Positions 32,130 through 55,069 of a DNA stretch of 64,000 nt are shown here, piece by piece. The position numbers and the translations under genes are program-made. The DNA is taken from the NCBI GenBank assembly GCA_018240695.1, contig JAFEFH010000004.1, forward strand, positions 1,032 to 65,031, written 5' to 3'. This stretch comes from Pseudomonadota bacterium (GTDB taxonomy: Bacteria; Pseudomonadota; Alphaproteobacteria; Reyranellales; Reyranellaceae). Positions within the stretch are counted from its first letter, which is position 1. The number at the start of each line of letters is the position of its first letter. Under the pieces are notes generated by a model. That model ran no database searches and was not told the origin of the DNA. It worked only from the letters and a program-made list of their open reading frames with translations.

Positions 32130-33173
32130 GTGAAGATCGAACCGCGCCAGGCCGAGGCCTTCCTCAAGAAGCCGGATCCGAAGATCCGGGCGGTGGTGAT
32201 CTACGGCAACGACGACGGGCTGATCGCCGAGCGCGCCACGCAACTCGCCAAGACCGTCTGCGAGGACCTCAAGGATCCGTTTCGCGTCATCGACATCGCG
32301 GGCGAAGCGCTGAAGCACGATCCGGCGCGGCTGGCCGACGAGTTCTCCGCCATGTCGCTGATGGGCGGGCGGCGCGTGATCCGCGTGCGGCCGGCCGGCG
32401 AGGAAGCGGCCGAGGCGCTGGAGAACCTGGTCGCCGCGACGGCGGGCGATGCGCTGATCGTCATCGAAGGCGGCAACCTCACGCCGCGCTCGACCTTGCG
32501 CACCATGGCCGAGACCGAGCCGACGCTGGCCGCCATGCCCTGCTACATGGATTCAGCGGAGGCACTGGAAGGGCTGGTCGAAAGCTCGGCACGCGCGCAG
32601 GGCCTCAACGTCGACGCCGATGCGCTGGACTGGATCGTCGAGCGGCTGGGCGGCGATCGCGGCCAGACGCGCAGCGAGATCGACAAGCTGCTGCTCTACA
32701 AGGCGGGCGACGACGCCAATACCATCACCATGGCCGACGCGATGGCGGTGCTGGGCGACACGGCGTCGATCGGCATCGACAATGTGATCGCCGCGACCTT
32801 CGACGGCGAGATGGTGGCGCTCGATCGCGCGCTCGACCGCGTGTTCGCCGAAGGCGGCAACCCGATCCAGCTCGTGCGCTCGTTGCAGCGTCACGCCGAC
32901 CAGCTTCACCTCGTGTCGGGACACGCCGCGCGCGGCGGCAACCTCGAGGGCGCGATGTTCAAGGCGCGCGGCCTGCCGCGCGGCGGCCCGGTGCGCCAGC
33001 GTTTCGAGCGGCACCTGCGGAGCTGGCCGCTCGCGCGCCTGAGCGCCGCGCTCACGCGCATCCTCGATGCCGAGCTGGAATGCAAGAGTACCGGCCTGCC
33101 CGACGAGGCGATCGCCCGCCGGCTGTGCCTCGGCCTGGCGAGCGCTGCCCGCCAGGCGCGCGCGCGCCGCTAG
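32130..33173 (+). CDS. holA: DNA polymerase III delta subunit
   Basis: VIYGNDDGLI, DPARLADE, LMGGRRVI, LGGDRGQTRSEIDKL; follows leuS. Confidence 0.92.
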   Translation: MKIEPRQAEAFLKKPDPKIRAVVIYGNDDGLIAERATQLAKTVCEDLKDPFRVIDIAGEALKHDPARLADEFSAMSLMGGRRVIRVRPAGEEAAEALENLVAATAGDALIVIEGGNLTPRSTLRTMAETEPTLAAMPCYMDSAEALEGLVESSARAQGLNVDADALDWIVERLGGDRGQTRSEIDKLLLYKAGDDANTITMADAMAVLGDTASIGIDNVIAATFDGEMVALDRALDRVFAEGGNPIQLVRSLQRHADQLHLVSGHAARGGNLEGAMFKARGLPRGGPVRQRFERHLRSWPLARLSAALTRILDAELECKSTGLPDEAIARRLCLGLASAARQARARR

Positions 33174-33994
33174 CCCTTCTTGCCGGCGCTCCCCGCCGAC
33201 AGCGGCGTCGCCGCATTCTCGGTCAGGATCAGGAAGGTGAAGCTCTCCTCGATGTAGAGCCGTACTTTTTCGGTGTCGTGCTCGAGGTAACCCAGCGAGA
33301 AGTCCTGGCCGACGGTGAGCTCGAAGTCGCCGCCGCGCTGGGAGATCACGAGACCGCCGTCGATGCCCGGCGCCCACACGATCTCGCCGTCGATCAGGCG
33401 ATTGACGTGGCTGATGATCGGATAGCCGCCGTCGGTGCGCGCCGCGAGGTCCTTGTAGAGCTGCTCGTTCAGCACCACGGAGAACGGGCCTTCGATGCCG
33501 TCGTCGCGCATGCGCGTGAGCGCCGATGCGACGGCGAGCGGATAGTCGGTATGGCTGGTGCCCAGCGGCACGGCCACGCCCTTGCGCGCTTCGCAGATGC
33601 CGGTGATCTGGGCGGCCTTGTAGCCGTGGAAGATCGCGCGGTCCTCGGCGATCGCGATCTCGCGCGCCGCCGCCGTCACTGAATCGAGATTGGGATCGCG
33701 CGCGCCGCGATCGATCGCGTCGAGTTCGGCGCGGCTGACGTCGAAGGGAATGCGCAGCTCGACCAGCGGCTGGATGCGGCGCAGGCGCGCCTGCACGTTC
33801 TTGCCCTTGGGCGGCGATTCGATCGGATCGGCGCGGCCGAGCTCGACGTCGGAGGCGCCCCAGCCGAGAGGTCCGCGGAAGTCGACGACGCGGCGCGCCG
33901 CCAGCAGCGCGCGCAGGGTGCGCTTGGCTTCCTTTTCGATCTCGACCCAGCCGGCCGGGGTGATCGGCGCGCGCTTATGGAAAAGATGGTTCAT
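33170..33994 (-). CDS. Family 1 encapsulin shell protein (Linocin M18-like)
   Basis: APITPAGWVEIE, RRVVDFRGPLG, PLVELRIPF, AIAEDRAIFHG, LTVGQDFSLGY, EESFTF. Confidence 0.96.
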   Translation of the reverse strand: MNHLFHKRAPITPAGWVEIEKEAKRTLRALLAARRVVDFRGPLGWGASDVELGRADPIESPPKGKNVQARLRRIQPLVELRIPFDVSRAELDAIDRGARDPNLDSVTAAAREIAIAEDRAIFHGYKAAQITGICEARKGVAVPLGTSHTDYPLAVASALTRMRDDGIEGPFSVVLNEQLYKDLAARTDGGYPIISHVNRLIDGEIVWAPGIDGGLVISQRGGDFELTVGQDFSLGYLEHDTEKVRLYIEESFTFLILTENAATPLSAGSAGKKG

Positions 33995-34392
33995 TGGTCC
34001 TGTCCTCCGGTCTTGCGCAGGCTGCCGATGCCGAGACTGCCGTCCTTCGACGGCCGCTCGTCGTCGCCGCCGTCACCACCGCCCGCTTCGCCTTTGCTCG
34101 CGGCCTCGACCGCCGTCAGCGAGCCCTCGGTGAACAGGTAGGTCTTGAGATGCTCGTCCATCTTGGGGTCGTTGCGCCGGATCCACTCCAGCGCCATCGC
34201 CGCGTGCTCCTTCTCCTCGTCGCGGTTGTGCTCGAGGATGGCGCGCAGCTCGGGATTCTTGGTGGCCTTTGCGCGCTGGTTGTACCAGTCGACCGCCTCC
34301 AGCTCTTCCATCAGCGACACGATCGCGCGGTGATTGTCGATGACGTCCGCCCCGAGCTTGTCGGGGTCTTCGTGCAGTGTCTCGCTCGCCAT
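33991..34392 (-). CDS. Encapsulated ferritin-like protein (EncFtn/Flp) with cargo-loading peptide
   Basis: SLMEELEAVDWYNQR and HNRDEEKEHAAM ferroxidase motifs; C-terminal DGSLGIGSLRK targeting peptide; ATG 34392. Confidence 0.96.
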   Translation of the reverse strand: MASETLHEDPDKLGADVIDNHRAIVSLMEELEAVDWYNQRAKATKNPELRAILEHNRDEEKEHAAMALEWIRRNDPKMDEHLKTYLFTEGSLTAVEAASKGEAGGGDGGDDERPSKDGSLGIGSLRKTGGQDQ

Positions 34393-34447
34393 TCGCCCAA
34401 ACCTTTCGCACGCGGACGAACGCATAGTCCGGCCGTTTCACCCCTTA

Positions 34448-34472
34448 AACGTCAGGGGCGTGCGCGAGTTCC
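34448..34472 (-). promoter_or_regulatory. EcfG (sigmaT/RpoE2)-type promoter of the encapsulin operon
   Basis: Minus strand GGAAC-TCGCGCACGCCCCTGA-CGTT (exact GGAAC-N16-CGTT), 55 nt before the Flp ATG. Confidence 0.75.
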
Positions 34473-34493: not shown

Positions 34494-35219
34494 TCAGTCC
34501 TCGGGCGGCACGAACATATAGCCCGCGCCGCGCACCGTGCGGATAGATGTGGGGTGCGCGGGATCGACCTCGATCTTGCGGCGGATGCGCAGGATGCGGA
34601 TGTCGATCGCCCGGTCGAAGGCTTCCATCTCGCGGTGGCTGGTCGTCTCGAGCAGCCAGTCGCGGCTGAGCGGCCGGTTGGGATTCTCGGCGAAGATGCG
34701 CAGCAGCTCGAACTCGCCGGCGCGCAGCGGCACTTCCTCGCCGCTCAGCGCCGTCATGCGCCGCGCCACGAGATCGAGCAGGCACTTGCCGACACGGACC
34801 CGCTCGCCGGGCGTCGCCGCACTGGCGCCGCCGGCGCGGCGCAGCAGGGCCTTCATGCGCGCCAGCAGCGCGCGCGGCTCGTAGGGCTTGGCGATGTAGT
34901 CGTCGGCGCCGGTCTCGAGGCCGACCACCTGGTCGACCGTGTCGCCGCTCGCCGTGACCATGATGATGCCGACCCTGCGGCTGCGCTCGCGCAGGAAGCG
35001 GGCGAGAGCGAAGCCGTCGTCGCCGCCCGGCAGCCGAAGGTCGAGCAGTACCAGGGCCGGCGGGTCTTTCTCGACCAGCTTGCGCAAACCGGCGCCGGAC
35101 TCGACGCCGGACGCGCGATAGCCGTTTTCCTCGAGGAAATCAGTGAGAGTTTCACGTTGAAACTGTTCGTCTTCGACGACGATGACGTGCGGACGCGTAT
35201 CTTTAGGGCGGACAGCCAT
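34494..35219 (-). CDS. OmpR-family response regulator
   Basis: VEDE, VLLDLRLPG (phospho-Asp), GADDYIAKP, winged helix DRAIDIRILRIRRKIE...TVRGAGY. Confidence 0.94.
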   Translation of the reverse strand: MAVRPKDTRPHVIVVEDEQFQRETLTDFLEENGYRASGVESGAGLRKLVEKDPPALVLLDLRLPGGDDGFALARFLRERSRRVGIIMVTASGDTVDQVVGLETGADDYIAKPYEPRALLARMKALLRRAGGASAATPGERVRVGKCLLDLVARRMTALSGEEVPLRAGEFELLRIFAENPNRPLSRDWLLETTSHREMEAFDRAIDIRILRIRRKIEVDPAHPTSIRTVRGAGYMFVPPED

Positions 35220-35283: not shown

Positions 35284-35311
35284 GCAGCGGCGCCGGGAGG
35301 GGCGCCGCTGC
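35284..35311 (-). terminator. GC hairpin, possible terminator between the small gene and the response regulator
   Basis: gcagcggcgcc-gggagg-ggcgccgctgc 11-bp stem; weak U-tract (TCTCGTTT) on the minus strand. Confidence 0.45.
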
Positions 35312-35719: not shown

Positions 35720-35821
35720 TACGGGTACCTGTCGTTTGGTTTCGTGGGTTACGCGGACCTTGCCCGCACACCCTTCGAAAGCGCTCGCGAAACCCACGAA
35801 ACATTTTCGCCGCGCCGCGTT
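35720..35821. promoter_or_regulatory. Mirror-symmetric divergent promoter/operator region
   Basis: 16/17 inverted repeat gtttcgtgggttacgcg (35739-35755) / cgcgaaacccacgaaac (35786-35802); each outward arm reads GAAAC-N15-CGTW. Confidence 0.55.
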
Positions 35822-35855: not shown

Positions 35856-38800
35856 ATGAACGACAATCAGCGCCTCGAACGGGTCCTTACCGATCGCCTG
35901 ATGACCGGCAACGTCGCGTTGCGGACCCTGGCGCTCGCCCTGTGGCTGGTCTTCGCCATCGTTTACTGGGACATCGCGCCATGGTGGATGATCGCCGGTC
36001 CGCTCGCGCTGCACATGCTGGCGATGGGCGGCTTCATGCTGCTGACGATGACCTATCGCGCGCGGCCCGAGTCGCGACCGGTCGCGCTCTGGCGTCGCGA
36101 CTACATCCTCTATGCGGCGCTCACGGGCATTTCGTACGGCGCGGGCGGCGCTCTCCTGGTCGGCTTGCCGCCGGCCGAGCCGCGGCTGGTCGTCACGACA
36201 GCGCTGCTGCTGTGCGCGGCGCTGGCGCCGGGCCGTCTCTACGAACCGCGCTCGTATCTCGCCTTCGCCGGCCTGTCGCTGCTCATCCTCGCGATCGGTC
36301 TGTTGAAGGCGCAGGACCCGCTGTCCTGGGCGCTGGCCACCGGCACGATGATCTATCTCGTGGCGCTGGTGCTGCAAAACCGGCCGCAGTATCGCGCCCA
36401 GCGCGAGCAGATCGCGCTCACGCTCGCCAATGAAGACCTCGCCAAGCGCCACGCCGCGGCCGAGGCCGACGCGCGCGCCGCCCGCGACACCTTGAACGAC
36501 GCGCTCGAGAGCCTGCCGGTGGCGATCGCGCTGTGGGATGCCGACGACCGCCTGATCCTGCGCAACAAGAATTACGCCGAGCGCCTGCAGAACCTGCCGG
36601 AAGCGACCACGCCCGGCGTGCGCTTCGCCGACGCCGTGCGCGCCGCCACGTACAAGGCGCCCACGCCGGTCGCGCCCCAAGGCAAGGAAGAGGGCTTCAT
36701 CGCCGGCGCCACCAAGATGCATCAGGAAGGAGGTACGGCGGAGTATCGCGCCGGCGACGACCACTGGCTGCGCGGCCAGTCGCGCCGCACCGGCAATGGC
36801 GGCACGGTCACCACCATCGTCGACATCTCCGAACTGAAGCGCCGCGAAAAGGAGGCGACCGATTCGCGCGCCGTGCTCCAGTCGGTGTTCGACAACATGA
36901 ACGACGGCGTCATGCTCTACGAAGCCGACGGCCGATGGGTCTACCAGAACCCGGCGATGGCGCGCCTGCACGAGATGCCCAACGAACTGCTGGCGACGCT
37001 GCCGACTTTCGCCGACATCGTGCGCTACCGCGCCCAGCGCGGCGACTACGGCCCGGTCGAGGACCTGCCGGGCGGGCTTGAAGGCTGGATCGAAAGCAGG
37101 GTCGACCGCTTCAAGGGCGCCGACCAGCCGGCCGAGCGGCGGCGCGCCGTCTCCGGCCGCACCGTCGAGGTGACGTACCGCCGCCTGAGCGACGGCCGCG
37201 TGCTCACCAACCATCGCGACATCACCGCGATCGTCGAGCAGGAGGAACGGCTGAACGCCGCGCGCACGGAATCGGAGAACGCGCGCACCACGCTCCAGAC
37301 CGTGCTCGACAACATGATCGACGGCGTCATGCTGTTCGACCAGGGCTTCCGCTGGCGCTTCATGAACCGCCAGCTCATGGAGTTTCAGCGCTTCACCACC
37401 GACGTGGCGTTCCCGGGCGCCTCGGGCCGCGACATCCTGCGCTTCCAGGCGCGGCGCGGCGACTTCGGGCCGGCCAGGGACGAGGCCGAGGTCGAGGCCA
37501 TGGTCGAGGACCGCGCGCAGCGCATGCTGGCCGCCGACGGCGCGCGCTACGCGCGGCGCACCGCCTCCGGCCGGATCATCGAGTTCAACTTCAAGCCGCT
37601 GCCCGACGGCGGCACGCTCGCGATCTATCGCGACATCACCGAGATCGAGGAGGCGCGCGCCAAGGCCGAGGCGGCGCAGACCCTGCTCGACGACGCGCTC
37701 GACAGCATGACCAGCGGCGTGGCGATCTGGGATCGCGACGAGCGGCTGATCCAGGGCAACGCGGCCTATCGCTCGGTCAACCGCGACCTGCCGGAGATCG
37801 TCATGCCCGGCACTCCCTTGCCGGTCGCCGCCGCCGCCGCCATGCGCGCGCAGAACCTGCTGCTCGACCACCCCATTCCCGAGGCCGAGGTCGAGCGGCT
37901 GACGCAGGCTGTCGTGCAGCAGCATCACAAGGGCGAGGGCGCGTTCGAGTACCAGACCGGCCCGCAAGCCTGGACCCGCCTCACCGCCGCGCGCACCAAG
38001 GCCGGCGGCTTCGTGTCGGTGTTCGCCGACATCACCGAATTGCGGCAGCGCCAGCGCGACCTGCGCCGCGAACGCGACGCGGCCCGGACGGCACGCACCG
38101 AGGCCGAGGCCGCCAACCAGGCCAAGTCGACCTTCCTCGCCACCATGAGCCACGAGATCCGCACGCCGATGAACGGCGTCGTCGGCACCGCCGAGCTGCT
38201 GGAGCGCGAGCCGCTGAACGAACGCCAGAAGCGGTTGGTCGGCACGGTGCGCAGCTCGGCCGCGGCGCTGCTGCGCATCATCGACGACGTGCTCGACTTC
38301 TCGAAGATCGAGGCCGGCCGCATGGAGCTGGAGGAGGCGCCGTTCTCGTTGCGCGGGCTGATCGACGGCATGACCGAGACGCTGTCGGTGCAGGTCGAGA
38401 AGAAGGGCCTGGCGATCGCCGCCATCGTCGAGCCGGGCGTGCCCGACCTGCTGCTGGCCGACGCCACGCGGCTGCGCCAGATCCTGTTCAACCTGATCGG
38501 CAACGCCACCAAGTTCACCGACCGTGGCGCCATCACCGTGCGCGCCCATGCGCTGCGCATCGACCCCGAGCATGTGACCCTCGGCATCGCCGTCAGCGAC
38601 ACCGGCATCGGCATGGACGCCGCCCAGCAGGCGCGCCTGTTCCAGCCTTTCTCGCAGGCCGACAGTTCGACCACGCGCCGCTATGGCGGCACGGGTCTCG
38701 GCCTGTCGATCGTGCGGCGCCTCGCCGAGCTGATGGACGGCACGGTGTCGGTCGACAGCGCGCCGGGCCGCGGCTCGACCTTCAACGTCACGGTGAAGGT

Positions 38801-39596
38801 GAAACGCGCCGCCGACGTCCCGCCGGCCCCGCGCCCTTCGGAGCCGCTGCCGCTCCAGACCGCGGGCAAGCGCGTCCTGGCGGTCGACGACTACGACGTG
38901 AATCTCGAGGTGCTGGCGGGCCAGTTCGAGATCCTCGGCGTGGCGCTCGACACCGCGATCAACGGCATCGAGGCGCTGAACCTGTGGCGCGCCCAGCCCT
39001 ATGCGCTGGTGCTGACCGACATCCACATGCCCGACATGGACGGCTTCGAGCTGACGCGCCAGATCCGCGCCGAGGAGGGCGTGCAGGGCGGCCGGGGAAG
39101 TGGGCGGCCACGCACGCCGATCGTGGCGCTGACCGCCAACGCGCTGAAGGGCGAGGCCGAGCGCTGCCTGACGGCCGGCATGGACGACTACCTGACCAAG
39201 CCCCTGACCCTCGACCGGTTGCGCGAGGCCGTCGCGCGCTGGACGAGCGATGCGCCCGCCACCGCACCGGCCGCCCAGAGCCCGCCGCCGGCCGACGTCG
39301 CTGTCGACCGCTCCGTGGTCGCGCAGATGTTCGGCGACAACCAGGCCGCCATCGCCCGCGTGCTCGGCCGCTTCCGCGACGCCGGGGTGAAGCTGCTGGC
39401 CGAGATCGACGCGGCCAAGGCCGACGCCAAGCTTGTGCGCGAGCTCGCCCACAAGCTGAAGGGCGCCGCGCGCGCCGCTGGCGCCGTGCGGCTCGGCGAT
39501 CTCGCGGCCATGCTCGAGAAGTCGGGCGCCTCGGAGGATATCGAGCCGCTCCACACCGAATGGGAGCGCGTCGCCGCCGCCCTCGCCGCCGGCTGA
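35856..39596 (+). CDS. Hybrid sensor histidine kinase (TM sensor, 4 PAS-like repeats, HisKA, HATPase, REC, Hpt)
   Basis: [57 protein letters not shown]. Confidence 0.96.
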
Positions 39597-39909: not shown

Positions 39910-39911
39910 GC

Positions 39912-39984
39912 GTCTTACGGGACCGCGGGCGTCCAGGCCCGCCTCATGACGATGAGCGGGCCTGGAGGCCCGCGGTCCCAAGAC
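39912..39984. repeat. REP-doublet (REPIN-like) long hairpin
   Basis: Two inverted arms GGGACC-GCGGGC-N6-GCCCGC around tcat-gacg-atga; fills the convergent intergenic gap. Confidence 0.65.
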
Positions 39985-40947
39985 TCAGCGCCGCGTCAGC
40001 TTCTCGACGACGTTGTCGAGCTGGTCGAAGTCGTTGATCTCCAAGGTCAGCATCGTCTTCTCGCCACCCTCGATGGTGAGCGACGCCTTGAGGCCGAGCG
40101 CCTCCTCGATGCGCTTCTCGAGCGCGCGGGTGTCGCCGGTCTTCTCGCCCGACGGCACCGGCTTCTTGCCCTTGGTCTTGAGCACGGGCCGCGTCTTGGC
40201 TTTCTCGCCGGCGGCCAGCTTTTCGAGATCGCGGACGGAGAGCTTCTCCTTGATCGCCCGCTCGGCGATCTTCGCCGGATCGGGAAAGCCCAGCAGCGCG
40301 CGGCCGTGGCCGGCGGTGATCTTCTCCTCGCGGATCAGCTCCTGCACATCGGCCGGCAGGTCGAGCAGGCGCAGCGTGTTGGCGACATGCGGGCGGCTCT
40401 TGCCCACGGTCTTCGCCACGTCTTCCTGGGTCTGGTTGAAGTCGGCGATCAGGCGGCGCAGGCCCATGGCCTCGTCGATCGGCGACAGGTCGGTGCGTTG
40501 CAGGTTCTCGACCAGGCCGATCTGCAAGGCCTCGAGATTGTCGAGGCTGCGCACGACGACCGGCACGTCATGGAGCTGCGCCTTTTGCGCCGCGCGCCAA
40601 CGGCGCTCGCCGGCGATGATCTCGTAGGCATCGGCCTCGCCGCGAATCGGCCGCACCAGGATCGGCTGGAGCAGGCCGAACTGGCGCACCGATTCGATCA
40701 GCACATCGAGGCCTTCGAAGGTCGTGCGCGGCTGGTACTCGCCCGGCCGCAACTGGCCGATCGGCAAGGTGAGCGGCGCGCGATTGGCGGCAGGACGCGC
40801 GGTGGGTGCTGCCGCAGCCGGCGGTGTCGCGGCCGGCGCGGGAGCAGGCGCGGCGGGCGTTGGGGCAACGGTCGCGGCGACTTCATCGTCGCCCAGCAGG
40901 GCGGAGAGGCCGCGGCCGAGACCGCGGGGCTTGGGAGGCTGGCTCAT
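39985..40947 (-). CDS. parB: Chromosome partitioning protein ParB
   Basis: RGLGRGLSALLG, YQPR, GLLQPILVR, IIAGERRWRAA, LVENLQRTDL, HTH VGKSRPHVANTLRLL; ATG 40947. Confidence 0.97.
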   Translation of the reverse strand: MSQPPKPRGLGRGLSALLGDDEVAATVAPTPAAPAPAPAATPPAAAAPTARPAANRAPLTLPIGQLRPGEYQPRTTFEGLDVLIESVRQFGLLQPILVRPIRGEADAYEIIAGERRWRAAQKAQLHDVPVVVRSLDNLEALQIGLVENLQRTDLSPIDEAMGLRRLIADFNQTQEDVAKTVGKSRPHVANTLRLLDLPADVQELIREEKITAGHGRALLGFPDPAKIAERAIKEKLSVRDLEKLAAGEKAKTRPVLKTKGKKPVPSGEKTGDTRALEKRIEEALGLKASLTIEGGEKTMLTLEINDFDQLDNVVEKLTRR

Positions 40948-41801
40948 GACGGGACCTGTTGCGCGGCAGCGGCGTTGCGCCGGCGGCGGATGAACTCGCT
41001 CGCCAGCAGGATGTAGGCCTGCGATCCGGCGCAGGCATTGTCGTAGATCAGGACGGGCAGGCCGTGCGACGGCGCCTCGGCGATGCGCACGTTGCGCGGG
41101 ATCGTCGTGCCGAACACCAGCTCGCCGAAATGCTGACGCGCATCGGCTTCGACCTGCTGGCTGAGCACGTTGCGCCGATCGACCATGGTCAACACGACGC
41201 CGGCGATATGCAACTTCGGGTTGAGTCTTTTCTTGATCCTCTCCACCGTGTTGACCAACGCGCCGATGCCCTCGAGCGCGAGGAACTCGGCCTGAAGCGG
41301 CACGAGCACCGCGTCGACGGCGACGAAGGCATTCAGCGTCACGAGGCCGAGCGACGGCGGACAGTCGATCAGGATCGTCGTCCATTGCGCGCGTGCCGCG
41401 GACTCGTCGGCGGCGAGCGCATCGAACAGCCGATGCTCGCGGCGCTCCATGTCGATCAGTTCGATCTCCGCGCCGGCCAGCGACACCGACGCCGGCATCA
41501 CCGACAGGCCCGGGATCTGCGAGGTGCGGATGCATTGGGCCATGGGGGAGAGGCCCAGGATGAATTCGTAGGCACCGGGCGCACGCTCGTTGCGCGGCAC
41601 GCCGAGGCCGGTCGAGGCATTGCCCTGGGGATCGAGATCGATCAGCAACACCTTCTCGCCCACCGCGGCGAGGGCGGTGGCGAGATTGATCGCCGTCGTC
41701 GTCTTACCGACGCCGCCCTTTTGATTGGCGATCGCGAATATCTGCGGCCCCGGGGGTGTCGAGGGGCCGGTAGTCGTCGATTCGGAGGAGGACGGCGTCA
41801 C
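40944..41801 (-). CDS. parA: Chromosome partitioning ATPase ParA
   Basis: [57 protein letters not shown]; nearest start GTG 41801 (alternatives 41813, 41855). Confidence 0.95.
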   Translation of the reverse strand: MTPSSSESTTTGPSTPPGPQIFAIANQKGGVGKTTTAINLATALAAVGEKVLLIDLDPQGNASTGLGVPRNERAPGAYEFILGLSPMAQCIRTSQIPGLSVMPASVSLAGAEIELIDMERREHRLFDALAADESAARAQWTTILIDCPPSLGLVTLNAFVAVDAVLVPLQAEFLALEGIGALVNTVERIKKRLNPKLHIAGVVLTMVDRRNVLSQQVEADARQHFGELVFGTTIPRNVRIAEAPSHGLPVLIYDNACAGSQAYILLASEFIRRRRNAAAAQQVPS

Positions 41802-42387
41802 GGTCGGTGGCACTTCTGAAATGTTGAGGGCTAATGTCCCAGCCGCGCTGGGCATCGGTCAATTCGGCCTGCCAGTCTTTGCCCTTGTGAAAAAGGCAAA
41901 TAGCGGGGTCGTTCCGGTGCCGCGCGGCCCAAAACAGCAACTGTCCGAGCGGCGCGAGCGCCCGGGCCGTCACCACATCGGCCTTGGCAGGCGGCACCGC
42001 TTCGATCCGTCCTATCACGATTTTAGGCTGCTTTGCCAAGGACATACGACGGCCGGCCTCGCCCAGGAACGCGGCTTTTCGCGCATCCGATTCGACCAGC
42101 ATGACGTCGAGGTCGGGCCGCAGCGCCGCCACCACGAGACCCGGGAATCCGGCCCCCGTGCCGAGGTCCGCCAAGGTCCGCGCACCGGCCGGGATGTGGG
42201 GCAGGATCTGCGCGGAATCGAGGATATGGCGCCCCCAGATATCATCGACCGTGGCCGGCCCGATCAGGTTGATGGCCTTCTGCCATTTCAGGAGGATTTC
42301 GACATAGGCTTCGAGCCGGCCCTCTGTTTCACGTGAAACATCGGGCAGGAACTCGGCCAGCCTACGCCGCGCGTCGACGCCGGACAT
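41704..42387 (-). CDS. rsmG: 16S rRNA m7G527 methyltransferase RsmG (GidB)
   Basis: [44 protein letters not shown]; ATG 42387. Confidence 0.95.
42325..42340. promoter_or_regulatory. parS centromere site 1 (inside rsmG)
   Basis: Perfect palindrome TGTTTCACGTGAAACA, encoding VSRET. Confidence 0.95.
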
Positions 42388-44269: not shown

Positions 44270-44317
44270 GGCCGGTCTTGTACGCCGCTTGATCGACAGC
44301 GGCCAGAGAGGCGGCAA

Positions 44318-44345
44318 TTGCACTCCGCATGCGCGTAGATAGTAT
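44318..44345 (+). promoter_or_regulatory. Putative sigma70 promoter of the lipoprotein gene
   Basis: TTGCAC-N16-TAGTAT, 24 nt before the ATG at 44370. Confidence 0.45.
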
Positions 44346-45579: not shown

Positions 45580-45605
45580 GCGCGCAGCCTGACTAGGCTG
45601 CGCGC
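45580..45605. terminator. Hairpin at the convergent lipoprotein/ku junction
   Basis: gcgcgcagcct-gact-aggctgcgcgc 11-bp stem overlapping the ku stop. Confidence 0.5.
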
Positions 45606-46465
45606 TTCTTCGCGCCGCCGCCCTTGAGGCTCTTCTTCAGCGCTTCCATCAGGTCGACCACCTTGCCGTCGTCCTCATCTTCCTCGGGCTCGGTGGCGAC
45701 CAGCTTGCCTTTCTTCTTGCGGGCGATCAGCTCACGCAGCGCGTCCTCGTAGCGGTCCTTGAATTCGGTGGGATCGAACGCGGCGGCCTGCTGCTCGATG
45801 ATCTTCTCGGCGATGTCGAGCATGCCCTTCTCGGGCTTGGGCAAGTCGCGGTCGAAAATCTCGGCCGTGCTGCGGATCTCGTCGTGGGTACGCAGGGTCG
45901 TGAGCAGGATGCCGGTCTCGCGCGGCTCGAGCGCGCACACCCGCTCGCGCGTGTGCAGCACCACCCGGCCCAGCGCCACCTTGTTCTGCTTGCTCATTGC
46001 CGCCTGGATCACCGAGAAGGCCTCGATGCCCGTCTTGCCGGCGGGGGCGAGGTAATAGGGCTCGTCCCAGTAGATGCGGTCGATCGAGTCGGCATCGACG
46101 AACTCCTGGATGTCGATGATGCGCGTCGATTCGAGCTTCACCGCGTCGAGCTCTTCCTTCTCGAGCAGGATGTACTTGTTCTTCGAAACCTCGAAGCCGC
46201 GCACCAGGTCGGCGCGGTCGACCGGCTTGCCGGTGCCGGCATCGACCGTCTGCATGCGGATGCGATTGTTGGTCTTGGGATTGATCATGTTGAAGTGGAT
46301 TTCGGAGGTACGTTCTGTCGCCGTATAGAGCGCCACCGGACAGGTCACCAGCGACAGCCGCAGATGGCCCTCCCAGGTCGGCCGCAACGCCTTGTGATGG
46401 CCGGCCGCAGCAGGGGCAGCGCGAGAAGTCCGCTTGCTCTTCGCGGTGCTGCGTTTCTTTGCCAT
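45593..46465 (-). CDS. ku: NHEJ DNA end-binding protein Ku
   Basis: WEGHLRLSLVTCPVALY, GFEVSK, IDIQEFV, YWDEPYYLAP, VVDLMEALKKSL. Confidence 0.96.
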   Translation of the reverse strand: MAKKRSTAKSKRTSRAAPAAAGHHKALRPTWEGHLRLSLVTCPVALYTATERTSEIHFNMINPKTNNRIRMQTVDAGTGKPVDRADLVRGFEVSKNKYILLEKEELDAVKLESTRIIDIQEFVDADSIDRIYWDEPYYLAPAGKTGIEAFSVIQAAMSKQNKVALGRVVLHTRERVCALEPRETGILLTTLRTHDEIRSTAEIFDRDLPKPEKGMLDIAEKIIEQQAAAFDPTEFKDRYEDALRELIARKKKGKLVATEPEEDEDDGKVVDLMEALKKSLKGGGAKKRAA

Positions 46466-46473: not shown

Positions 46474-49104
46474 TCAGCGTTTGGTTTCGATCAGAGTTTC
46501 GATGGCGGCGCGCAGCGGCCTCGCCGCATCCTCATAGCCGCGCCAGGGCTTGGTCTTCTTCAGCAGCGCCGGCGCGGTCTTCACCGTGTATTTCATGGGA
46601 TCGAGCCCAGCCTTCACGGCCTTCCAGTCGACCGGCATCGACACCGGCGCGCCCGCGCGCGCGCGCGGCGACAGCGGCGCCACCGCGGTCGAGGTTTTGT
46701 CGTTGCGCAGATAGTCGAGAAAGATCCGCCCGGTGCGCTCCTTCTTCGCCATGTTGAGCACGTAGCGGTCGGGAAACTGCGCGGCCAGGCGGCGGCAGAC
46801 TTCCTTGGCGAACATCTTGGCCGCGTCCCAATCGGGACTCTTCTTGTCGGCGGTGAGCGGCACCACGACATGCAGGCCCTTGCCGCCGGTCGTCTTGCAG
46901 AAGGCCTCGAGTCCCAGCGCCTCGAGCCGCTCGCGCACTTCCAACGCGCCCTTGATCACGTCGTTGAACTTCACATCGGGCGCGGGGTCGAGATCGAATA
47001 CCAGTCGGCCCGGCAGCTCGGGCTGGTCGGGCTGGCAGTTCCAGGGATGCAGCTCGGTCGTGCCCATCTGCGCCGCCGCGATCAGTCCCTCGACCCGGTC
47101 GATCTGGAGATAGGGCTTCTTGTCGCCTTTGACCTTCACCGCCTCGAAGAGATGCGAGCCGCCGGCCATGGCATGGCGCTGGAAGAACTTCTGTTTGCCG
47201 TCGATGCCGTCGGGCGTGCGCACGATCGAGCAGGGCCGCCCCTTGATGTGCGGCAGCATCCACTCGCCGACTTCCTCGAAATAGTGCGCGAGGTCGAGCT
47301 TGCTGACCTTGTCCTTGGGCCACAGCAACTTGTCGGGATGGGAGAGGGACACGCCCATCACCATGCCCGGGCCGCCGGCCTTGACCGCGCGCACCGCCTT
47401 TTTGGGAGTGGGTTCCGCGACCTCGGTATCCTCGGGTTCGGCAGGTTTTTCGGCCTCGACGTCCTCGGCCGGCTTGTCGGCGCGCAAGCCCTTGAAGGCT
47501 GCCTGCCGCACGTTGCCCGCGCCCGTCCAGCCGGCGAACTCGATCTCGGCCACCAGCTCGGGCGCGGCCCAGTGCATGTTGCTCTCGCGCGGCGGCGATG
47601 CGGCGGCATCGAACGGCGACTTCTTGCTCTCGACCGCCTTCAGCTTCGGCAGGACGGCGCGCATCACCTTCTCGCTGAAGCCGGTGCCGACACGGCCGAC
47701 ATACACCAGCTTGTCGCCGCCCCCATCAACTTTCCGATGCACGCCCGCCAACAGCGAGCGCAGCTTCCTGCCTTCCTGCGTCCAGCCGCCGATCACCACC
47801 TCATGGCCGGCGCGGCACTTGGCCTTGGTCCAGGTGCCGTGACGGCCGGACTTGTAGGGCGCGCCGAGCTCCTTCGACACGATGCCCTCGAGATGCATCT
47901 TGCAGGCCGACTGGAGGACGGCATCGCCGCCGGTCTCGAAGTGCTCGACGTAGCGGATGGTCTGCTTCCTGGCTTCGGTCGCCGCCAGCAACGCGCGCAG
48001 CCTGTCCTTGCGCTCCGACAGCGGCAGCGGCCGCAGGTCCTCGCCGTCGGCGAACAGCAGGTCGAAGGCGAAGAAGATGAGATTCTTGGAATCGTCCTCC
48101 GACAAGGCGGCCTGGAGCGCCGCGAAGTCGGGCGCCCCATGCTCGTCGAGCGCACAGGCCTCGCCGTCGATGAGGCAGTCGGGCAGGGCAGCCGCCGCCT
48201 CGGCGATGGCGGCGAACTTGCGCGTCCAGTCGAGCCCCTTGCGGGTGCGCAACGCGGCCTCGCCATCCTCGACGCGCAGTTGCAGGCGGTAGCCGTCGAA
48301 CTTCACCTCGTGGGCCCAACCGGCGCCGGAGGGCGCGCGCTCGACCAGCTTGCAGAGTTGCGGCTCGACGAATTCCGGCAGGTCCGCGGCCTTCCTGGCA
48401 TGTGCGGCCTTGCCCTTCTTGCGGATGTTCGTCTTGCCGCTCTCCTTGCTGTTCCAGACGGCGCCGGCGGTGGCCTTGTTCCTGCGGCTCATGAAGGGCG
48501 TCGGCGCCTTGCCGGTGCCGAGCTCGATCTGCTTCAGCGTGCGGCCCGAGGCCACCGACTTCGGGTCCTTCAGGAGCTTGTCGCCATTGCCTTCCTCGGC
48601 AGCGCCGTCGCGATGCTTGATCAGCAGCCAGTTGGTGCGCTTGCTGTCGCCGCTCTTTTTGCCCCACTTCATGCGCACCAGCACCCAACTGCCGCCCAGC
48701 CGCTCGCCCTCCAGGGTGAACTTGAGGTCGCCGCGCTTCAGCCCTTCGTGCGGATCGCCCTCGGGAATCCAGTAGCCGCGGTCCCAGAGCTGGACCGTGC
48801 CGCCGCCATACTGGCCCTTCGGGATGGTGCCTTCGAAGTCTCCATAGTCCAGCGGATGGTCCTCGACCTCGACCGCCAGGCGCTTGTCGGCGGGATCGAG
48901 CGACGGACCCTTGGTCACGGCCCAAGACTTGAACACGCCGTCGAGCTCGAGCCGGAAGTCGTAGTGCAGCCGCGTGGCATCGTGGCGCTGGATGACGAAT
49001 CGGAGTCCCGCCCCCTTCGCCACCACCGCCTTGCCCGAGGGCTCGGCGGTCTTGGCGAAATCGCGCTTGGCGCGATAGGTGTCGAGGCTCCCCTTGGCGC
49101 TCAT
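46474..49104 (-). CDS. ligD: NHEJ DNA ligase D (phosphoesterase-ligase-polymerase)
   Basis: [18 protein letters not shown] (PE), HEVKFDGYR (ligase Lys), [27 protein letters not shown] (Pol). Confidence 0.97.
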
Positions 49105-51194
49105 ACCGGCGGCCGCACCAGCTTCTCGCGGTCCCAGATACGGTGCTTCTTGGCGGCGGCGATGAAGTCCTGCACGCCGCGCTTGCTGTCGAGTTCGACA
49201 ACGCCGAGATCGACGTCGGGCTCGATCGCGGCCTCGTCGAACAACGGCGCGGCCGCGTCGGCATAGGCGATGGCCTTGAGGTGTCCGTAGGCGTCACGGA
49301 TCCAGTTGATCGCGGCGGCCATGTTCAGCAACTCCGCCGCCCCGTCTTCCGACGGCAACACTACGACGGCGTCGAACAGCACCGACGGGCCGCCGTCGAT
49401 CGTCTCGTCCGGCCGGTGCGTGGCCCCACTCGAGTCCTTCAACGGACCGATCTTCGGCGCCACGAGCTTCAGCTTCGCGCCTTCCTTTTTCAGTGCCGTG
49501 GCGAGAGCGGCCAGCAGCTTGCCGTCACAGCCCGGCGTCACCAGCGCGGCGATCGTACGGCCCTCGATGGTGGCCGGCGCCTTGGCGACGATGCTGAGGG
49601 GCGGCGAGGGCGGCAGGTCGTCGCGCGGCTCGACCGCCGGCACGATGTCGTCGGCCTTGCCCTCCATGCCCATCGCCGCGGCGACGCGCTGGCCGAGTTC
49701 GGGCTCGATCAGGTCGAGATGGCCGAGCATCCGGGTCCGGACGGCGAGCGTCGTCACCTTGCTCAGCTCGAACGTGAAGGCCGACACGATATGTGCCTGC
49801 TCCGGCGGCGTCATCGACCGCCAGAACTGGCGGGCCTGCGAGTAATGATCGGCGAAGGTCTCCGACCGCTCGCGCACCTTCGGTCCGGCATTGGGATCGG
49901 GGAAGCTCGCGAAGCCGCGCACCGGGTTCTCGCGCGGGCTCGCGGGATCGAGCGAGTTCGGCTCGTAGTTGGTGCGGCCCGGCACCGCCAGCATGCGCAT
50001 GTGACCGTCGCGCTGGAAGTTGCGCATCGGACAGACCGGCTTGTTGATCGGGATCTCGTGGAAGTTCGGCCCGCCCAACCGCGACAGCTGGGTGTCGAGG
50101 TAGGAATGGAGGCGGCCCTGGAGCAGCGGGTCCGGCGTGAAGTCGATGCCGGGCACGATGTGGCCGGGGTGGAACGCGACCTGCTCGGTCTCGGCGAAGA
50201 AGTTCACCGGATTGCGGTCGAGCACCATGCGGCCGATCGGGGTGAGCGGCACGATCTCTTCCGGAATGATCTTGGTGGGATCGAGGATGTCGAAGTCGAG
50301 CGAATCGGCGATCTTCTCGTCGAACGCCTGAACGCTCAACGTCCATTCCGGGAAGGCGCCGGTGTCGATCGACTCCCACAGGTCGCGGCGGTGATAGTCG
50401 GGGTCGGCGCCGGCGATCTTGACCGCCTCCTCCCAGACCAGCGAGGCCGCGCCGATGGTCGGCCGCCAGTGGAACTTCACGAAGGTCGACTTGCCGGCTA
50501 CGTCGATCAGCCGGAACGTATGGATGCCGAAGCCCTCGATATGGCGCAGCGAGCGCGGGATGGCGCGGTCCGACATCGCCCACATCAGCATGTGCATGCT
50601 CTCGGGCATCAGCGAGACGAAGTCCCAGAAGGTGTCATGCGCCGAGGCGGCCTGCGGGAAGGCGCGATCGGCCTCCATCTTCACCGAGTGGACCAGGTCG
50701 GGGAACTTCATCGCGTCCTGGATGAAGAAGACCGGGATGTTGTTGCCGACCAGGTCGAAGTTGCCTTCCTCGGTGTAGAACTTCACGGCGAAGCCGCGCA
50801 CGTCGCGCGGCGTGTCGACCGAGCCCGCGCCGCCCGCGACGGTCGAGAATCGTACGAAGACCTTGGTGCGCTTGCCGGGCTGCAGGAACGCCGCCTTGCT
50901 GAGCTTGGAGGCACCGCGCGCCGCCTCGAAATATCCGTGCGCTCCCGAACCCCGGGCGTGGACGATGCGCTCGGGAATGCGCTCATGGTCGAAGTGCGTG
51001 ATCTTCTCGCGGAGGATGAAATCCTCGAGCAGGGTCGGACCGCGCGCCCCGCTTTTCAGCGAGTTCTGGTTGTCGGCGACCGGGGTGCCCTGATTGGTCG
51101 TCAGCGTCTGGTTGTCGGCCGCAGTCGTTTGATGCAACTCGCCACCCGCGACCTTCCGGTTCACCGGCTTCTTGCCCGCCTTTGCCTTCGCCAC
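49101..51194 (-). CDS. katE: Large-subunit monofunctional catalase (HPII-type, C-terminal DJ-1/GATase-like domain)
   Basis: [43 protein letters not shown]; likely GTG start 51194. Confidence 0.96.
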
Positions 51195-51247: not shown

Positions 51248-51272
51248 AACGGGCAGGAAAGGAACGGGTTGC
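51248..51272 (-). promoter_or_regulatory. EcfG-type promoter candidate for katE-ligD-ku
   Basis: Minus strand GCAAC-N16-CGTT (one mismatch from GGAAC), 53 nt before the katE GTG. Confidence 0.55.
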
Positions 51273-51318
51273 CACAAAGACGCCGCAACGGCCTTCCTCG
51301 GGGAGTCGTTAGGACTCC

Positions 51319-51975
51319 ATGCCGCAAAAGCATCTCCTCACCCGCCGGCTGCTCGGCACCACCGCCGTCGCCACGGCCATGACCGGCGTCGCCGCCCGCG
51401 CCCAGATCCCCCAACCCAAGGACGTCCAGACCGCCATCGCGCCGGCGCCCTCCTTTCCAGGAAATCTCGACATGAATCTCGACGTGAACGGCCGGCAGCA
51501 CCGGCTGTCGCTCGACCCGCGCACGACGCTGCTCGACGCCCTGCGCGACCATCTCGGCCTCACCGGCACCAAGAAGGGCTGCGACCATGGGCAGTGCGGC
51601 GCCTGTACGGTGCTGATCAACGGCGTGCGGATGAATTCCTGCCTGTCGCTGGCCGCCAGCCGCGAGGGTGACAAGATCGTCACCATCGAGGGCCTGGCCG
51701 ACGGCGAGAAGCTGCACCCGATGCAGACCTCGTTCGTGCATGCCGACGCCTTCCAGTGCGGCTTCTGCACGCCGGGCCAGATCTGCTCGGCGGTCGGCAT
51801 GGCCAACGAGCTGAAGCGCGGCGTGCCATCGGCCGTGACGATCGACGTCGCCGCCGCGCCGACCGCCAGCGTCGACGAAGTGCGCGAGCGCATGAGCGGC
51901 AACATCTGCCGCTGCTCGGCCTATCCTAACATCGTGGCGGCCATCCTCGCCGCTACCGAGGGGGTGACGAAATGA
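51319..51975 (+). CDS. paoA: Aldehyde oxidoreductase 2Fe-2S subunit with Tat-like signal (PaoA/YagT-like)
   Basis: TRRLLG; [30 protein letters not shown]. Confidence 0.9.
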
Positions 51976-52967
51976 AGGCCTTCACCTTCGAACGCGCCAC
52001 CGACGTCGACGCCGCGGTCGCTTCCTCCGCCAAGCCCGGCGCGCGCTTCATCGCCGGCGGCACCAACCTGCTCGATCTCATGAAGGTCGAGGTCGAAAAG
52101 CCCGCGCATCTGATCGACATCTCGCGCCTGCCGTTGCGTGACATCGCCGAGACGCCGGAGGGCGACCTCACGGTGGGAGCGCTGGTCAGCAACACCGACC
52201 TCGCCGCGCATCCCAAGGTGCGCGAACGCTATCCGATGCTGGCGCGCGCGGTCGTCAACGGCGCCTCGGCGCAGCTGCGCAACCAGGCGACAACCGGCGG
52301 CAATCTCCTTCAGCGCACGCGCTGCCCGTACTTCTATGACGTGGCCAAGTCCTGCAACAAGCGCACGCCGGGCGCGGGCTGCTCGGCCTTGCAGGGCATC
52401 AACCGCATGACCGCCGTGCTGGGCGGCAGCGACGCCTGCATCGCCGCGCACCCGTCGGACATGGCGGTCGCCCTGATGGCGCTCGAGGCCACCATCGAGA
52501 CCAAGGGCGGCAGCAAAGGCGGACGCAAGATCGCCATCGCGGATTTCTACCGCCTGCCCGGCGACACACCGCACCGGGAAACCAACCTGGAGCCCGGCGA
52601 GCTGATCGTCTCGGTGGCGCTGCCGCCGCCGCCGGCCGGGCAACAGACCTATCGCAAGGTGCGCGACCGCGCGTCCTACGCTTTCGCGCTGGTGTCGGTC
52701 GCCGCCATCCTCGATCTCGACGCCGACAAGCGCGTGCGTGGTGCGCGGCTGGCGCTGGGCGGTGTCGGCACGATGCCGTGGCGCGCGCTCGATGCCGAGA
52801 AGGGCATGGTCGGCGCCGAGGCGGGCGACAAGGCCTTCGCCGCGGCGGGCGCCGTGGCGATGGCCGGCGCGCGCGGCCGCGGCGGCAACGACTTCAAGAT
52901 CCCGCTGGCCAAGCGCGTCGTGGCGCGCACCTTCGCCGGCCTCGCGACCTCCATTTCGAAGGGCTGA
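51972..52967 (+). CDS. paoB: Aldehyde oxidoreductase FAD subunit (PaoB/YagS-like)
   Basis: [54 protein letters not shown]. Confidence 0.9.
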
Positions 52968-52972
52968 TTCCC

Positions 52973-55069
52973 ATGGCAACTGTCATCGGCATGCCGATCG
53001 ACCGCATCGACGGGCCCGCCAAGGTGACCGGCAAGGCGATCTATGCCGCCGACGTCGGCGCGGACAAGCCGGTGTTCGGCGCGATCGCCACCGCCACCAT
53101 CGCCTACGGGTCCATCAAGTCGATCGATGCCAGCGAAGCGCGCCGCCAGCCCGGCGTGCTGCTGGTGTGGACGCACGAGAACGCCCCGGCCCAGGCGCCG
53201 TGGGTGCCCAAGGCCGAGGATCCGTTCGCCCGTCCCAAGCCCCAGCTCGACAGCAAGAAGATCCAATATTACGGCCAGCCCGTCGCGCTGGTCGTCGCCA
53301 CCACCTTCGAGGCCGCGCGCGAAGCCGCCGCCCTGATCGACGTGACGTACGAGAAGGGCGAAGGGGTGTTCGATCTCGAGAACGCCGGCAAGGACACCAA
53401 GACGCCCAAGCAGGACAATGTCGGCAAGCCTGCCGCCAGCAAGGTGGGCGACGTCGACATGGCGATGCGCACCGGCTTCGTCTCGGTCGACGAGACCTAC
53501 AAGACGCCCTACCAGAACCACAACCAGATGGAGCCGCATGCCAGCACGGCGATCTGGGACGGCGACAAGCTCACCGTGCACTGCGCGGTCCAGCTCGTGG
53601 AATCCGCGCACGCCTGCATCGCCACCACGCTCAAGCTGCCGCCCGAGAAGGTCGAAATCGTGGCCGAGTTCATCGGCGGCGGCTTCGGCGGCAAGCTGCC
53701 GGTCTATGGCGACGCCATCCTGGCCGGTCTGGCCGCGCGCGAGTTGAAGCGGCCGGTCAGGGTCGTGCTGACCCGCCAGCAGATGGCGCACGTCACCACC
53801 CATCGCGGCGCCTCGGTGCAGCGCGTGCGCCTGGCCGCGCAGCGCGACGGCACCCTGACGGCCATCGCGCACGAATCTCTGGCCCAGACCGCGCGCGCCG
53901 ACGACTTCGTCGAGCCGATCGTGGCCTCGACGCGCTCGCTCTACGCCGCGCCCAACCGCTTCACCCAGCAGCGCACCGCCGTGCTCGACCTGCCGATCCC
54001 GGGCTCGATGCGGGCGCCGGGCGAGGCGATCGGCCTGCTGGCGCTCGAGCAGGCGATCGACGAGCTGGCGGTGAAGCTCGACATGGATCCGATCGCGCTG
54101 CGCCTCAAGAACGAGCCCAAGGACGACCCCGAGAAGCACATCCCGTTCTCGACGCGCAACCTGGTGGCGTGCCTGCAACAGGGCGCCGACCGCTTCGGCT
54201 GGAACAAGCGCAACCCCAAGCCCGGCGCCAACCGGCAGGGCCAGTGGCTGGTGGGCATGGGCGTGGCGGCGGCGATCCGCGGCAACTTCCTGCGCAAGGC
54301 AGAAGCCAAAGTCACCATGACCAGCGCGAAGACCGCGACGGTCGAGATGGACATGACCGACATCGGCACCGGCTCCTACACCATCTTCGCGCAGATCGCG
54401 GCCGAAACGCTCGACATTCCGGTCGAGGCGGTGACGGTGAAACTCGGCCACAGCTCCTATCCCGACACGCCGGGCTCGGGGGGCTCGTTCGGCGCGTCGA
54501 GCTGCGGCGCGGCGCTGCTCGATGCCTGCCAGAAGCTGAAGGCGCGCCTCGACAAGGGTGAAGGGCCGCAGGGTTTGACGGCAATGGGCAAGGCCGCGCC
54601 CGGCGACGACTACAAGAAGTACGCGCAGTTCGCCTACGGCGCCCATTTCGCCGAGGTCGGCGTCGACGCCGATACCGGCGAGGTGCGCCTTCGCCGCATG
54701 CTGGGCGTGTTCGATGCCGGCCGCATCCTCAACGCCAAGACCGCGCGCTCGCAGCTGATCGGCGGCATGATCTGGGGTGTGAGTTCGGCGCTCTACGAGG
54801 AGCAGCCGCTCGACCTGCGCTTCGGCTCGTTCATGAGTGTCGACCTCGCCAACTATCACGTGCCGGTGCATGCCGACATCCCGAGCGTCGAAGCCGCGAC
54901 CTTGAAGGAGTTCGACCGCCACGCCAACGCGCTGGGCTCGAAGGGCGTGGGCGAACTCGGCATCTGCGGCGCCGGCGCCGCGGTCGCCAACGCCGTCTAC
55001 AACGCCTGCGGCGCCCGCGTGCGGGAGTACCCGATCACCGTCGACAAGATCCTGCCGGCGTTGAGCTAG
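52973..55069 (+). CDS. paoC: Aldehyde oxidoreductase molybdopterin subunit (PaoC/YagR-like)
   Basis: ATG 52973; DGPAKVTG, HNQMEPH, IGGGFGGK, MRAPG, DIGTG, KGVGELG. Confidence 0.92.
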   Translation: MATVIGMPIDRIDGPAKVTGKAIYAADVGADKPVFGAIATATIAYGSIKSIDASEARRQPGVLLVWTHENAPAQAPWVPKAEDPFARPKPQLDSKKIQYYGQPVALVVATTFEAAREAAALIDVTYEKGEGVFDLENAGKDTKTPKQDNVGKPAASKVGDVDMAMRTGFVSVDETYKTPYQNHNQMEPHASTAIWDGDKLTVHCAVQLVESAHACIATTLKLPPEKVEIVAEFIGGGFGGKLPVYGDAILAGLAARELKRPVRVVLTRQQMAHVTTHRGASVQRVRLAAQRDGTLTAIAHESLAQTARADDFVEPIVASTRSLYAAPNRFTQQRTAVLDLPIPGSMRAPGEAIGLLALEQAIDELAVKLDMDPIALRLKNEPKDDPEKHIPFSTRNLVACLQQGADRFGWNKRNPKPGANRQGQWLVGMGVAAAIRGNFLRKAEAKVTMTSAKTATVEMDMTDIGTGSYTIFAQIAAETLDIPVEAVTVKLGHSSYPDTPGSGGSFGASSCGAALLDACQKLKARLDKGEGPQGLTAMGKAAPGDDYKKYAQFAYGAHFAEVGVDADTGEVRLRRMLGVFDAGRILNAKTARSQLIGGMIWGVSSALYEEQPLDLRFGSFMSVDLANYHVPVHADIPSVEAATLKEFDRHANALGSKGVGELGICGAGAAVANAVYNACGARVREYPITVDKILPALS

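Follow-up and report, generated by a model that had tools for sequence, protein, structure and literature searches.

Predicted EcfG (general stress sigma factor) control of the encapsulin-ferritin, katE-ligD-ku and paoABC operons in a Reyranella species

Are neighbouring operons for iron storage, peroxide removal, DNA end-joining and molybdenum-dependent oxidation induced together, and does it matter that they lie beside the parS sites? These questions are raised by a 64,000-nucleotide window (the whole stretch of DNA analysed, contig C305:1032-65031) from a draft Reyranella genome of 4.71 Mb, 360 contigs and 67% GC. The window carries an operon for an encapsulin shell and its encapsulated ferritin (EncFtn) on one side of parAB-mnmG, and a katE-ligD-ku operon and a divergent paoABC-like operon on the other. 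We predict that EcfG, the general stress sigma factor, acts directly on all three operons, a reading to which we give a probability of about 0.82, and their predicted co-regulation by such a factor is well supported. The promoters are judged genuine EcfG-type promoters because their motif is enriched across the genome and conserved upstream of orthologues, and because genes for NepR and EcfG-like sigma factors are present.

Each operon is preceded by an intergenic, correctly oriented motif (Table 1), with CGTT lying 55 nt from the start codon of EncFtn, 53 nt from that of katE and 8 nt from that of paoA. The katE and paoA sites point away from each other within the 124-bp intergenic region between the two divergent genes, their -35 boxes 12 bp apart, and the short distance from CGTT to ATG gives the predicted paoA promoter a leaderless geometry. 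A sequence-only reading of this DNA had described an exact EcfG-like motif before the encapsulin-ferritin operon, a one-mismatch motif before katE-ligD-ku and possibly another before paoABC; all three are where it placed them, and in the latter two the mismatch is a C at -35 position 2, giving GCAAC. The window taken alone does not reach significance, with 2 exact motif matches against 1.4 expected.

The genome as a whole gives a clear signal. We counted sites that were intergenic, correctly oriented and no more than 250 nt from a start codon, and compared them with control spacers. GGAAC-N-CGTT has 16 sites with a 16-nt spacer and 10 with a 17-nt spacer (26 in total), against about 2 per control spacer, a 5.9-fold enrichment. 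GCAAC-N-CGTT occurs 12 times at spacer 16 and 15 times at spacer 17 (27 in total), against 2.0 per control spacer, a 6.1-fold enrichment. All single-mismatch variants were tested genome-wide, and besides GCAAC none rose above 2.6-fold; GAAAC was weakly enriched at 2.4-fold. Combined, the two forms account for 53 sites on 41 contigs where about 8 are expected (Poisson P = 7e-26). Scoring against the genome background had been proposed in the sequence-only reading. A position weight matrix with flanking bases was dropped, the flanks being nearly information-free, and core-variant counts were used instead; by these, G(G/C)AAC is enriched about 6-fold over control spacers in upstream intergenic DNA. 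The -35 box reads G(G/C)AAC, with GCAAC in full use alongside GGAAC, and the "one mismatch" is no defect.

The motif is also conserved at orthologous loci, which came from 24-25 further Reyranella genomes. G(G/C)AAC-N16/17-CGTT stands upstream of EncFtn orthologues in 19 of 20 cases, the twentieth carrying GGAAT, upstream of all 14 katE homologues, and upstream of all 11 paoA orthologues with upstream DNA, 7 of which share a distance of 8-10 nt to the ATG. Where no katE precedes ligD, the motif precedes ligD itself (11/11 genomes), and across 45 kb of ligD loci 11 of the 12 motif matches fall at the ligD start. Genes outside the three operons behave likewise: Fe/Mn superoxide dismutase (SOD) has the motif in 20 of 22 cases and DUF72 in 7 of 7. 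Identity between the 16-nt spacers of orthologous promoters is 0.29-0.31, the chance level at this GC content; the spacers have diverged this far while the boxes were kept, and only the two boxes are under selection. A wider scan of EncFtn loci found the motif in 19/19 Reyranella-clade records and in three other alphaproteobacteria; the roughly 50 EncFtn loci from outside the Alphaproteobacteria (Frankia, Burkholderiales, Gammaproteobacteria, Acidimicrobiia and Polyangia) all lacked it.

The regulatory locus, C311:21359-23286, holds nepR, ecfG-B and ecfG-A on one strand. NepR (C311:21359-21430) matches PF18557 with 27.1 bits against a cut-off of 25.7 bits, and the two ECF sigma genes directly upstream of it encode proteins 43% identical to each other. 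The best PDB match of sigma A is 5uxx_A (2.7e-41; next match 6.5e-17), which we take to be an EcfG-NepR complex. Beyond ecfG-A come a GCAAC and a GGAAC promoter in tandem and then a glycine-zipper lipoprotein gene, inside which contig C311 ends. Of 26 Reyranella genomes, 20 have the partner-switch gene phyR, as a single copy that scores over the NCBIfam cut-off and adjoins the same sigma genes. In relative L190 phyR is found beyond the two sigma genes, with an HWE/HisKA_2 kinase after it, and is preceded by csbD with a GCAAC promoter and by the glycine-zipper lipoprotein gene with a GGAAC promoter, an assignment made from the open reading frames (ORFs) of L190 only. The same promoter pair is found upstream of phyR in 4 of 5 other relatives, and L191 has the GGAAC site only.

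The predicted target set resembles a general stress regulon. GCAAC sites precede genes for two CsbD proteins, a DUF4142 protein, an S30AE/HPF ribosome hibernation factor, hemerythrin, DUF6496 and DUF3175 proteins, SOD, a CBS protein, LpxR and an EgtB-like DinB protein. GGAAC sites precede genes for another DUF4142 protein, a DUF72 protein, an Mpo1-like protein, an NAD(P)H quinone reductase, PagL and cyclopropane fatty acid (CFA) synthase. On contig C27 (626-3668), two GGAAC promoters stand before adjoining genes for an ExoIII-type nuclease and a LigC-like ATP-dependent DNA ligase, a pair that would be a second DNA-repair module of the predicted regulon. The distance from CGTT to the start codon is exactly 8 nt in 7 of the 53 sites (paoA and DUF72 among them), and any other distance occurs at most twice. 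A mode this sharp is not expected of random matches and suggests leaderless mRNAs, which seem to be common among the stress genes of the genus.

Several points weigh against EcfG control of the three operons. The promoters are known from their sequence: the presence, enrichment, orientation, geometry and conservation of the motif and the regulatory genes were observed, and from them we infer sigma-factor dependence, inducing conditions and physiological co-induction. Gene calls were made with a third-position GC filter at 74% coverage, so that the site counts are approximate, and about 15% of the strict sites are expected to be false positives. Two of the GGAAC matches, at C294:70122 (a radical-SAM DNA-repair gene) and C329:1151 (an imuA-like gene), were rejected as EcfG sites; they overlap LexA-like boxes of the form GAAC-N7-GAAC and, judged by eye, are probably SOS operators. 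The relatives used for conservation share ancestry and hence are not independent samples. There are two, possibly three, EcfG-like paralogues, any of which may read a given promoter. Finally, searches of this assembly with phmmer (the sigma protein as query), with jackhmmer aimed at C-terminal receiver domains and with NF006623 did not find phyR. C311 ends at the syntenic position where phyR would follow, and the gene was probably lost at this contig break.

The presence of two sigma paralogues and two -35 forms raises an alternative to joint induction, namely that GGAAC (EncFtn) and GCAAC (katE, pao, SOD) define separate promoter classes, one per EcfG paralogue, with tiered induction as the outcome. 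Across the genus the proximal EncFtn promoter reads GG in 18 cases and GC in 1, katE and paoA together read GG in 3 and GC in 22 (Fisher P = 3e-8 if the sites are independent), and at the phyR locus the first promoter is GCAAC in 5/5 and the second GGAAC in 6/6. Both sigma paralogues lie side by side in nearly all genus genomes searched, and hierarchical EcfG paralogues are reported for Sphingopyxis, Sphingomonas and Methylobacterium. These samples share ancestry, however, and the two Reyranella paralogues have sigma-4 recognition helices that closely resemble each other. Use of the two forms is mixed at ligD (7 GG, 4 GC), DUF72 (4 GG, 3 GC) and SOD (4 GG, 16 GC), and the SOD promoter of L211 differs from those of L209, L210 and L212 solely at the G/C base. 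Such flips in otherwise identical promoters, together with the mixed ligD and DUF72 sites, weaken the division into classes, which we regard as distinctly unlikely. A reading in which the -35 G/C base tunes the choice of paralogue (iron caging as one tier, peroxide, aldehyde and superoxide defence as the other) and in which, separately, EncFtn-encapsulin would be the first nanocompartment shown to belong to the core general-stress targets, we hold to be unlikely.

Could the EcfG motif instead be minor, with each operon chiefly under its own regulator? For EncFtn the candidates would be the adjacent OmpR-type regulator with the hybrid kinase, transcriptional read-through out of the regulator gene, or a factor binding a leader hairpin; for katE, a peroxide sensor. 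There is no terminator between the response regulator gene and EncFtn, and this gene is the upstream neighbour of EncFtn in about half of the relatives. The EncFtn leader (34393-34447) also contains a sequence-conserved hairpin or palindrome of 8 pairs, nearly invariant in about 14 relatives with little covariation, which is followed on its 3' side by GGAGG and matches no Rfam family. This element may be a binding site, a translational control element or a second control layer. Other Reyranella species, many of the relatives among them, have a leaderless EncFtn arrangement or tandem promoters in place of the hairpin leader, and the EcfG motif is retained regardless of the upstream neighbour of EncFtn. 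A scan of both promoter regions found no sigma-70-like promoter. Control chiefly by operon-specific regulators is, on this evidence, highly unlikely.

The sequence-only reading had also tied the regulon to the neighbourhood of two parS sites. Two perfect sites are indeed present, with promoters 7.9 and 8.4 kb away; two such matches arose in 0/100 shuffles, and parA and parB were confirmed as adjoining genes. A functional role for this position, as a position-dependent protective island through ParB spreading or replication-linked gene dosage, would find some encouragement in the three strict sites of the 64-kb window against 0.72 expected (P = 0.04, chosen post hoc) and in the persistence of EncFtn and ligD-ku on either side of parAB-mnmG, separated by 7-16 kb, in most of the genus. 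Against it, the 53 sites are scattered over 41 contigs, and the ecfG genes, phyR and most targets lie elsewhere in the genome. The genus-wide order is mnmE, EcfG promoter, (katE-)ligD, ku. The katE gene lies between promoter and ligD in a subclade (the window genome, G001, G004, G005, G013 and G023), and paoABC, with its own divergent promoter, is inserted between mnmE and katE in the window genome and G001. In other Reyranella species katE and pao occupy unrelated loci, each with the same promoter type. A local regulon linked to parS is therefore not supported, given at least 53 such promoters on 41 contigs and katE and pao elsewhere in other species. Conserved gene order is the simpler explanation: closeness to parS looks like an inherited genus arrangement (mnmE-mnmG-rsmG-parAB) to which stress genes were added, and we rejected a function of parS proximity as the leading explanation, a very remote prospect in our estimate. 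That the EncFtn site alone is real, with the one-mismatch motifs before katE and paoA having arisen by chance, might be argued from the non-significant count within the window and the frequency of one-mismatch matches (10 between 30 and 58 kb), but it is effectively refuted by the enrichment of GCAAC, the sole mismatch variant as enriched as the consensus, and by its retention before katE, paoA and SOD orthologues despite randomised spacers.

Gene identities in the window were taken from Pfam and NCBIfam profile matches (Table 1). From one end, leuS and holA (+) precede the encapsulin side; after holA come encapsulin, EncFtn and the OmpR-type regulator (-), the hybrid kinase (+), and parB, parA, rsmG and mnmG (-). 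After mnmG come a TPR protein (+), ku, ligD and katE (-), paoA, paoB and paoC (+) and mnmE (-). The operon structure proposed in the sequence-only reading is borne out by the gene junctions: encapsulin and EncFtn overlap by 4 nt, ligD overlaps the katE stop by 4 nt, ku is the last gene of its operon after an 8-nt gap from ligD, paoA and paoB overlap by 4 nt, and a terminator scan found no terminator-like site inside the three operons.

The shell, the ferritin-like cargo and a C-terminal cargo (targeting) peptide, GSLGIGSL, invariant across 8 sequences, are all present, as in a family 1 encapsulin with EncFtn cargo. The EncFtn start was corrected from 34425 to ATG 34392 from orthologue starts. 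A three-domain LigD and a Ku homologue, both above their cut-offs, constitute a bacterial non-homologous end-joining (NHEJ) system. KatE scores 993 bits against the NF008422 equivalog, under its 1102-bit cut-off, with the C-terminal catalase domain present. Its start was moved from 51275 to GTG 51194 because orthologue alignments begin at or shortly after that residue and third-position GC collapses upstream of it, falling to about 50% as judged by eye from the sequence. PaoA and PaoC are the top NCBIfam matches of the 2Fe-2S and molybdopterin subunits, at 282 bits (under a 322-bit cut-off) and 823 bits (under a 1180-bit cut-off), respectively. Because both scores miss the equivalog cut-offs, we call the genes PaoABC-like, and the substrate is uncertain.

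Table 1. Positions of genes, promoters and other elements within the window
Feature	Position	Strand	Evidence or remark
Family 1 encapsulin shell protein	33170..33994	-	Pfam Linocin_M18 5e-88; NF041155 305 bits vs 100-bit cut-off
EncFtn (encapsulated ferritin)	33991..34392	-	Pfam EncFtn-like; TIGR04535 141 bits vs 125-bit cut-off
Hairpin in EncFtn 5' leader	34413..34435	-	CGG-C-CGGAC, loop, GTTCG-T-CCG; ATG 34425 in loop
EcfG-type promoter of EncFtn-encapsulin (predicted)	34472..34448	-	GGAAC-N16-CGTT; exact consensus
OmpR-type response regulator	34494..35219	-	Directly upstream of EncFtn promoter; context only
PAS-rich hybrid histidine kinase with Hpt domain	35856..39596	+	Pfam; context only
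parB	39985..40947	-	
parA	40944..41855	-	Pfam
parS site 1	42325..42340		TGTTTCACGTGAAACA; 16/16 match
mnmG (gidA)	42362..44323	-	Pfam
parS site 2	42819..42834		TGTTTCACGTGAAACA; 16/16 match; inside mnmG
ku	45593..46465	-	Pfam Ku; TIGR02772 296 bits vs 150-bit cut-off
ligD	46474..49104	-	Phosphoesterase, ligase and polymerase domains; TIGR02776 720 bits vs 373-bit cut-off
katE, large-subunit (HPII-type) catalase	49101..51194	-	Pfam Catalase, Catalase-rel and Catalase_C
EcfG-type promoter of katE-ligD-ku (predicted)	51272..51248	-	GCAAC-N16-CGTT
EcfG-type promoter of paoABC (predicted)	51285..51310	+	GCAAC-N17-CGTT
PaoA-like 2Fe-2S subunit	51319..51975	+	Twin-arginine signal TRRLLG
PaoB-like flavin adenine dinucleotide (FAD) subunit	51972..52967	+	
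PaoC-like molybdopterin subunit	52973..55069	+	Corrected start ATG 52973
mnmE	55070..56449	-	

Other elements were noted in the window. Two more GCAAC-N16-CGTT matches lie outside the three operons: one at 9316-9340 (+), 91 nt ahead of the gene (9431-10387) for a putative neutral zinc metallopeptidase, and one at 12779-12803 (+), within a minus-strand gene and 226 nt upstream of a 110-amino-acid ORF that has no Pfam match. Near the hybrid kinase gene, a strong terminator hairpin of 11 pairs at 35284-35311 (-) lies 3' of an 87-amino-acid ORF. An inverted repeat, GTTTCGTGGGTT ... AACCCACGAAAC, spans 35720-35821 between this ORF, which encodes a secreted protein, and the kinase gene; read as twin ECF-like promoters (GAAAC-N15-CGTA), it falls outside the G(G/C)AAC-N16/17-CGTT rule. 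A long hairpin at 39910-39991, between parB and a convergent 96-amino-acid ORF 3' of the kinase gene, is probably a two-way terminator, its Rfam matches being spurious miRNAs. Over 33-56 kb Rfam returned only sub-threshold miRNA and snoRNA noise.

The arrangement suggests the following mechanism. By analogy with studied species, stress would lead to phosphorylation of PhyR, and phosphorylated PhyR would sequester NepR and so free EcfG. RNA polymerase carrying EcfG would then recognise G(G/C)AAC at -35 and CGTT at -10, 16-17 bp apart, and start transcription about 8 nt downstream of CGTT, yielding a leaderless paoA mRNA and leaders of about 45-50 nt for EncFtn and katE. The joint products would be a ferritin-loaded encapsulin cage for iron sequestration, an HPII catalase translationally coupled to LigD and Ku, combining peroxide removal with DNA end-joining, and a periplasmic PaoABC-like molybdenum oxidoreductase. 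The sequence-only reading had cast such joint induction as a dormancy or desiccation programme, a role that is hypothetical beside the well-supported co-regulation. The three operons would belong to a regulon of at least about 50 promoters that also serves SOD, CsbD, HPF, hemerythrin, the LigC-like ligase with its ExoIII partner, and lipid A and membrane remodelling genes.

How does this predicted regulon compare with known systems? It shares the GGAAC-N16/17-CGTT architecture with the PhyR-NepR-EcfG regulons (ECF15), which include those of Caulobacter SigT, Sinorhizobium meliloti RpoE2, and EcfG of Sphingomonas melonis, Methylobacterium extorquens and Bradyrhizobium; as in those systems, NepR and EcfG-like sigma genes adjoin phyR and an HWE kinase gene in Reyranella relatives. 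The M. extorquens promoter is given as GAAC-N16,17-C/GGTT (PMC4814048), and several of the strongest S. melonis EcfG targets carry GCAAC, so that the variant occurs among validated targets (PMC6599016). Catalase, Ku, molybdenum hydroxylase subunits, CsbD and small envelope proteins recur in known EcfG regulons (PMC6599016, PMC4814048, PMC6379672). Unlike these, Reyranella uses G or C at -35 position 2 equally (26 versus 27 sites), has tandem EcfG paralogues at the phyR locus, and counts EncFtn-encapsulin among its predicted targets.

The individual modules can be set beside their counterparts. RpoE2 has been shown experimentally to control ku3-ku4 and ligD4 in S. meliloti (Dupuy et al. 2019, PMC6379672), and among ku-bearing alphaproteobacteria about 90% have an EcfG box ahead of ku (PMC6379672). 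The Reyranella NHEJ genes likewise follow an EcfG-type promoter, but as a single ligD-ku pair in one operon, with an HPII catalase gene between promoter and ligD in the subclade. The S. melonis EcfG regulon includes two catalases, Ku, Dps proteins and CoxS/CoxM-like molybdenum hydroxylase subunits, the last among its most strongly EcfG-dependent genes (PMC6599016); the pao operon resembles these CoxSML-like genes in having molybdenum hydroxylase subunits under predicted EcfG-type control. It resembles Escherichia coli PaoABC (YagTSR) in its three subunits, 2Fe-2S with a twin-arginine signal, FAD and molybdopterin, and differs in that its proteins score below the PaoA and PaoC equivalog cut-offs. 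Ku/LigD, catalase and molybdenum hydroxylase are expected regulon members, already published in other alphaproteobacteria.

The encapsulin operon stands apart from these. An EncFtn-type family 1 encapsulin has been described in Rhodospirillum rubrum, and as in that system the Reyranella shell gene overlaps an EncFtn gene bearing a C-terminal targeting peptide; the regulatory link to EcfG proposed here for Reyranella distinguishes the two. We found no open-access full-text paper that ties encapsulin to EcfG, to PhyR or to the alphaproteobacterial general stress response, and encapsulin as an EcfG target seems new within the open-access literature searched.

For alphaproteobacterial biology, one practical consequence concerns promoter searches: a query restricted to GGAAC-N16/17-CGTT overlooks half of this clade's promoters, since GCAAC is equally frequent there. 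The placement of katE with ligD-ku behind one predicted stress promoter would couple peroxide removal to double-strand-break repair, a principle already published. The predicted sites together give Reyranella, a genus common in soil and water yet unstudied, its first well-founded general stress regulon map, and with the encapsulin iron-storage compartment among the predicted EcfG targets, nanocompartments would be linked to a genetically testable stress pathway.

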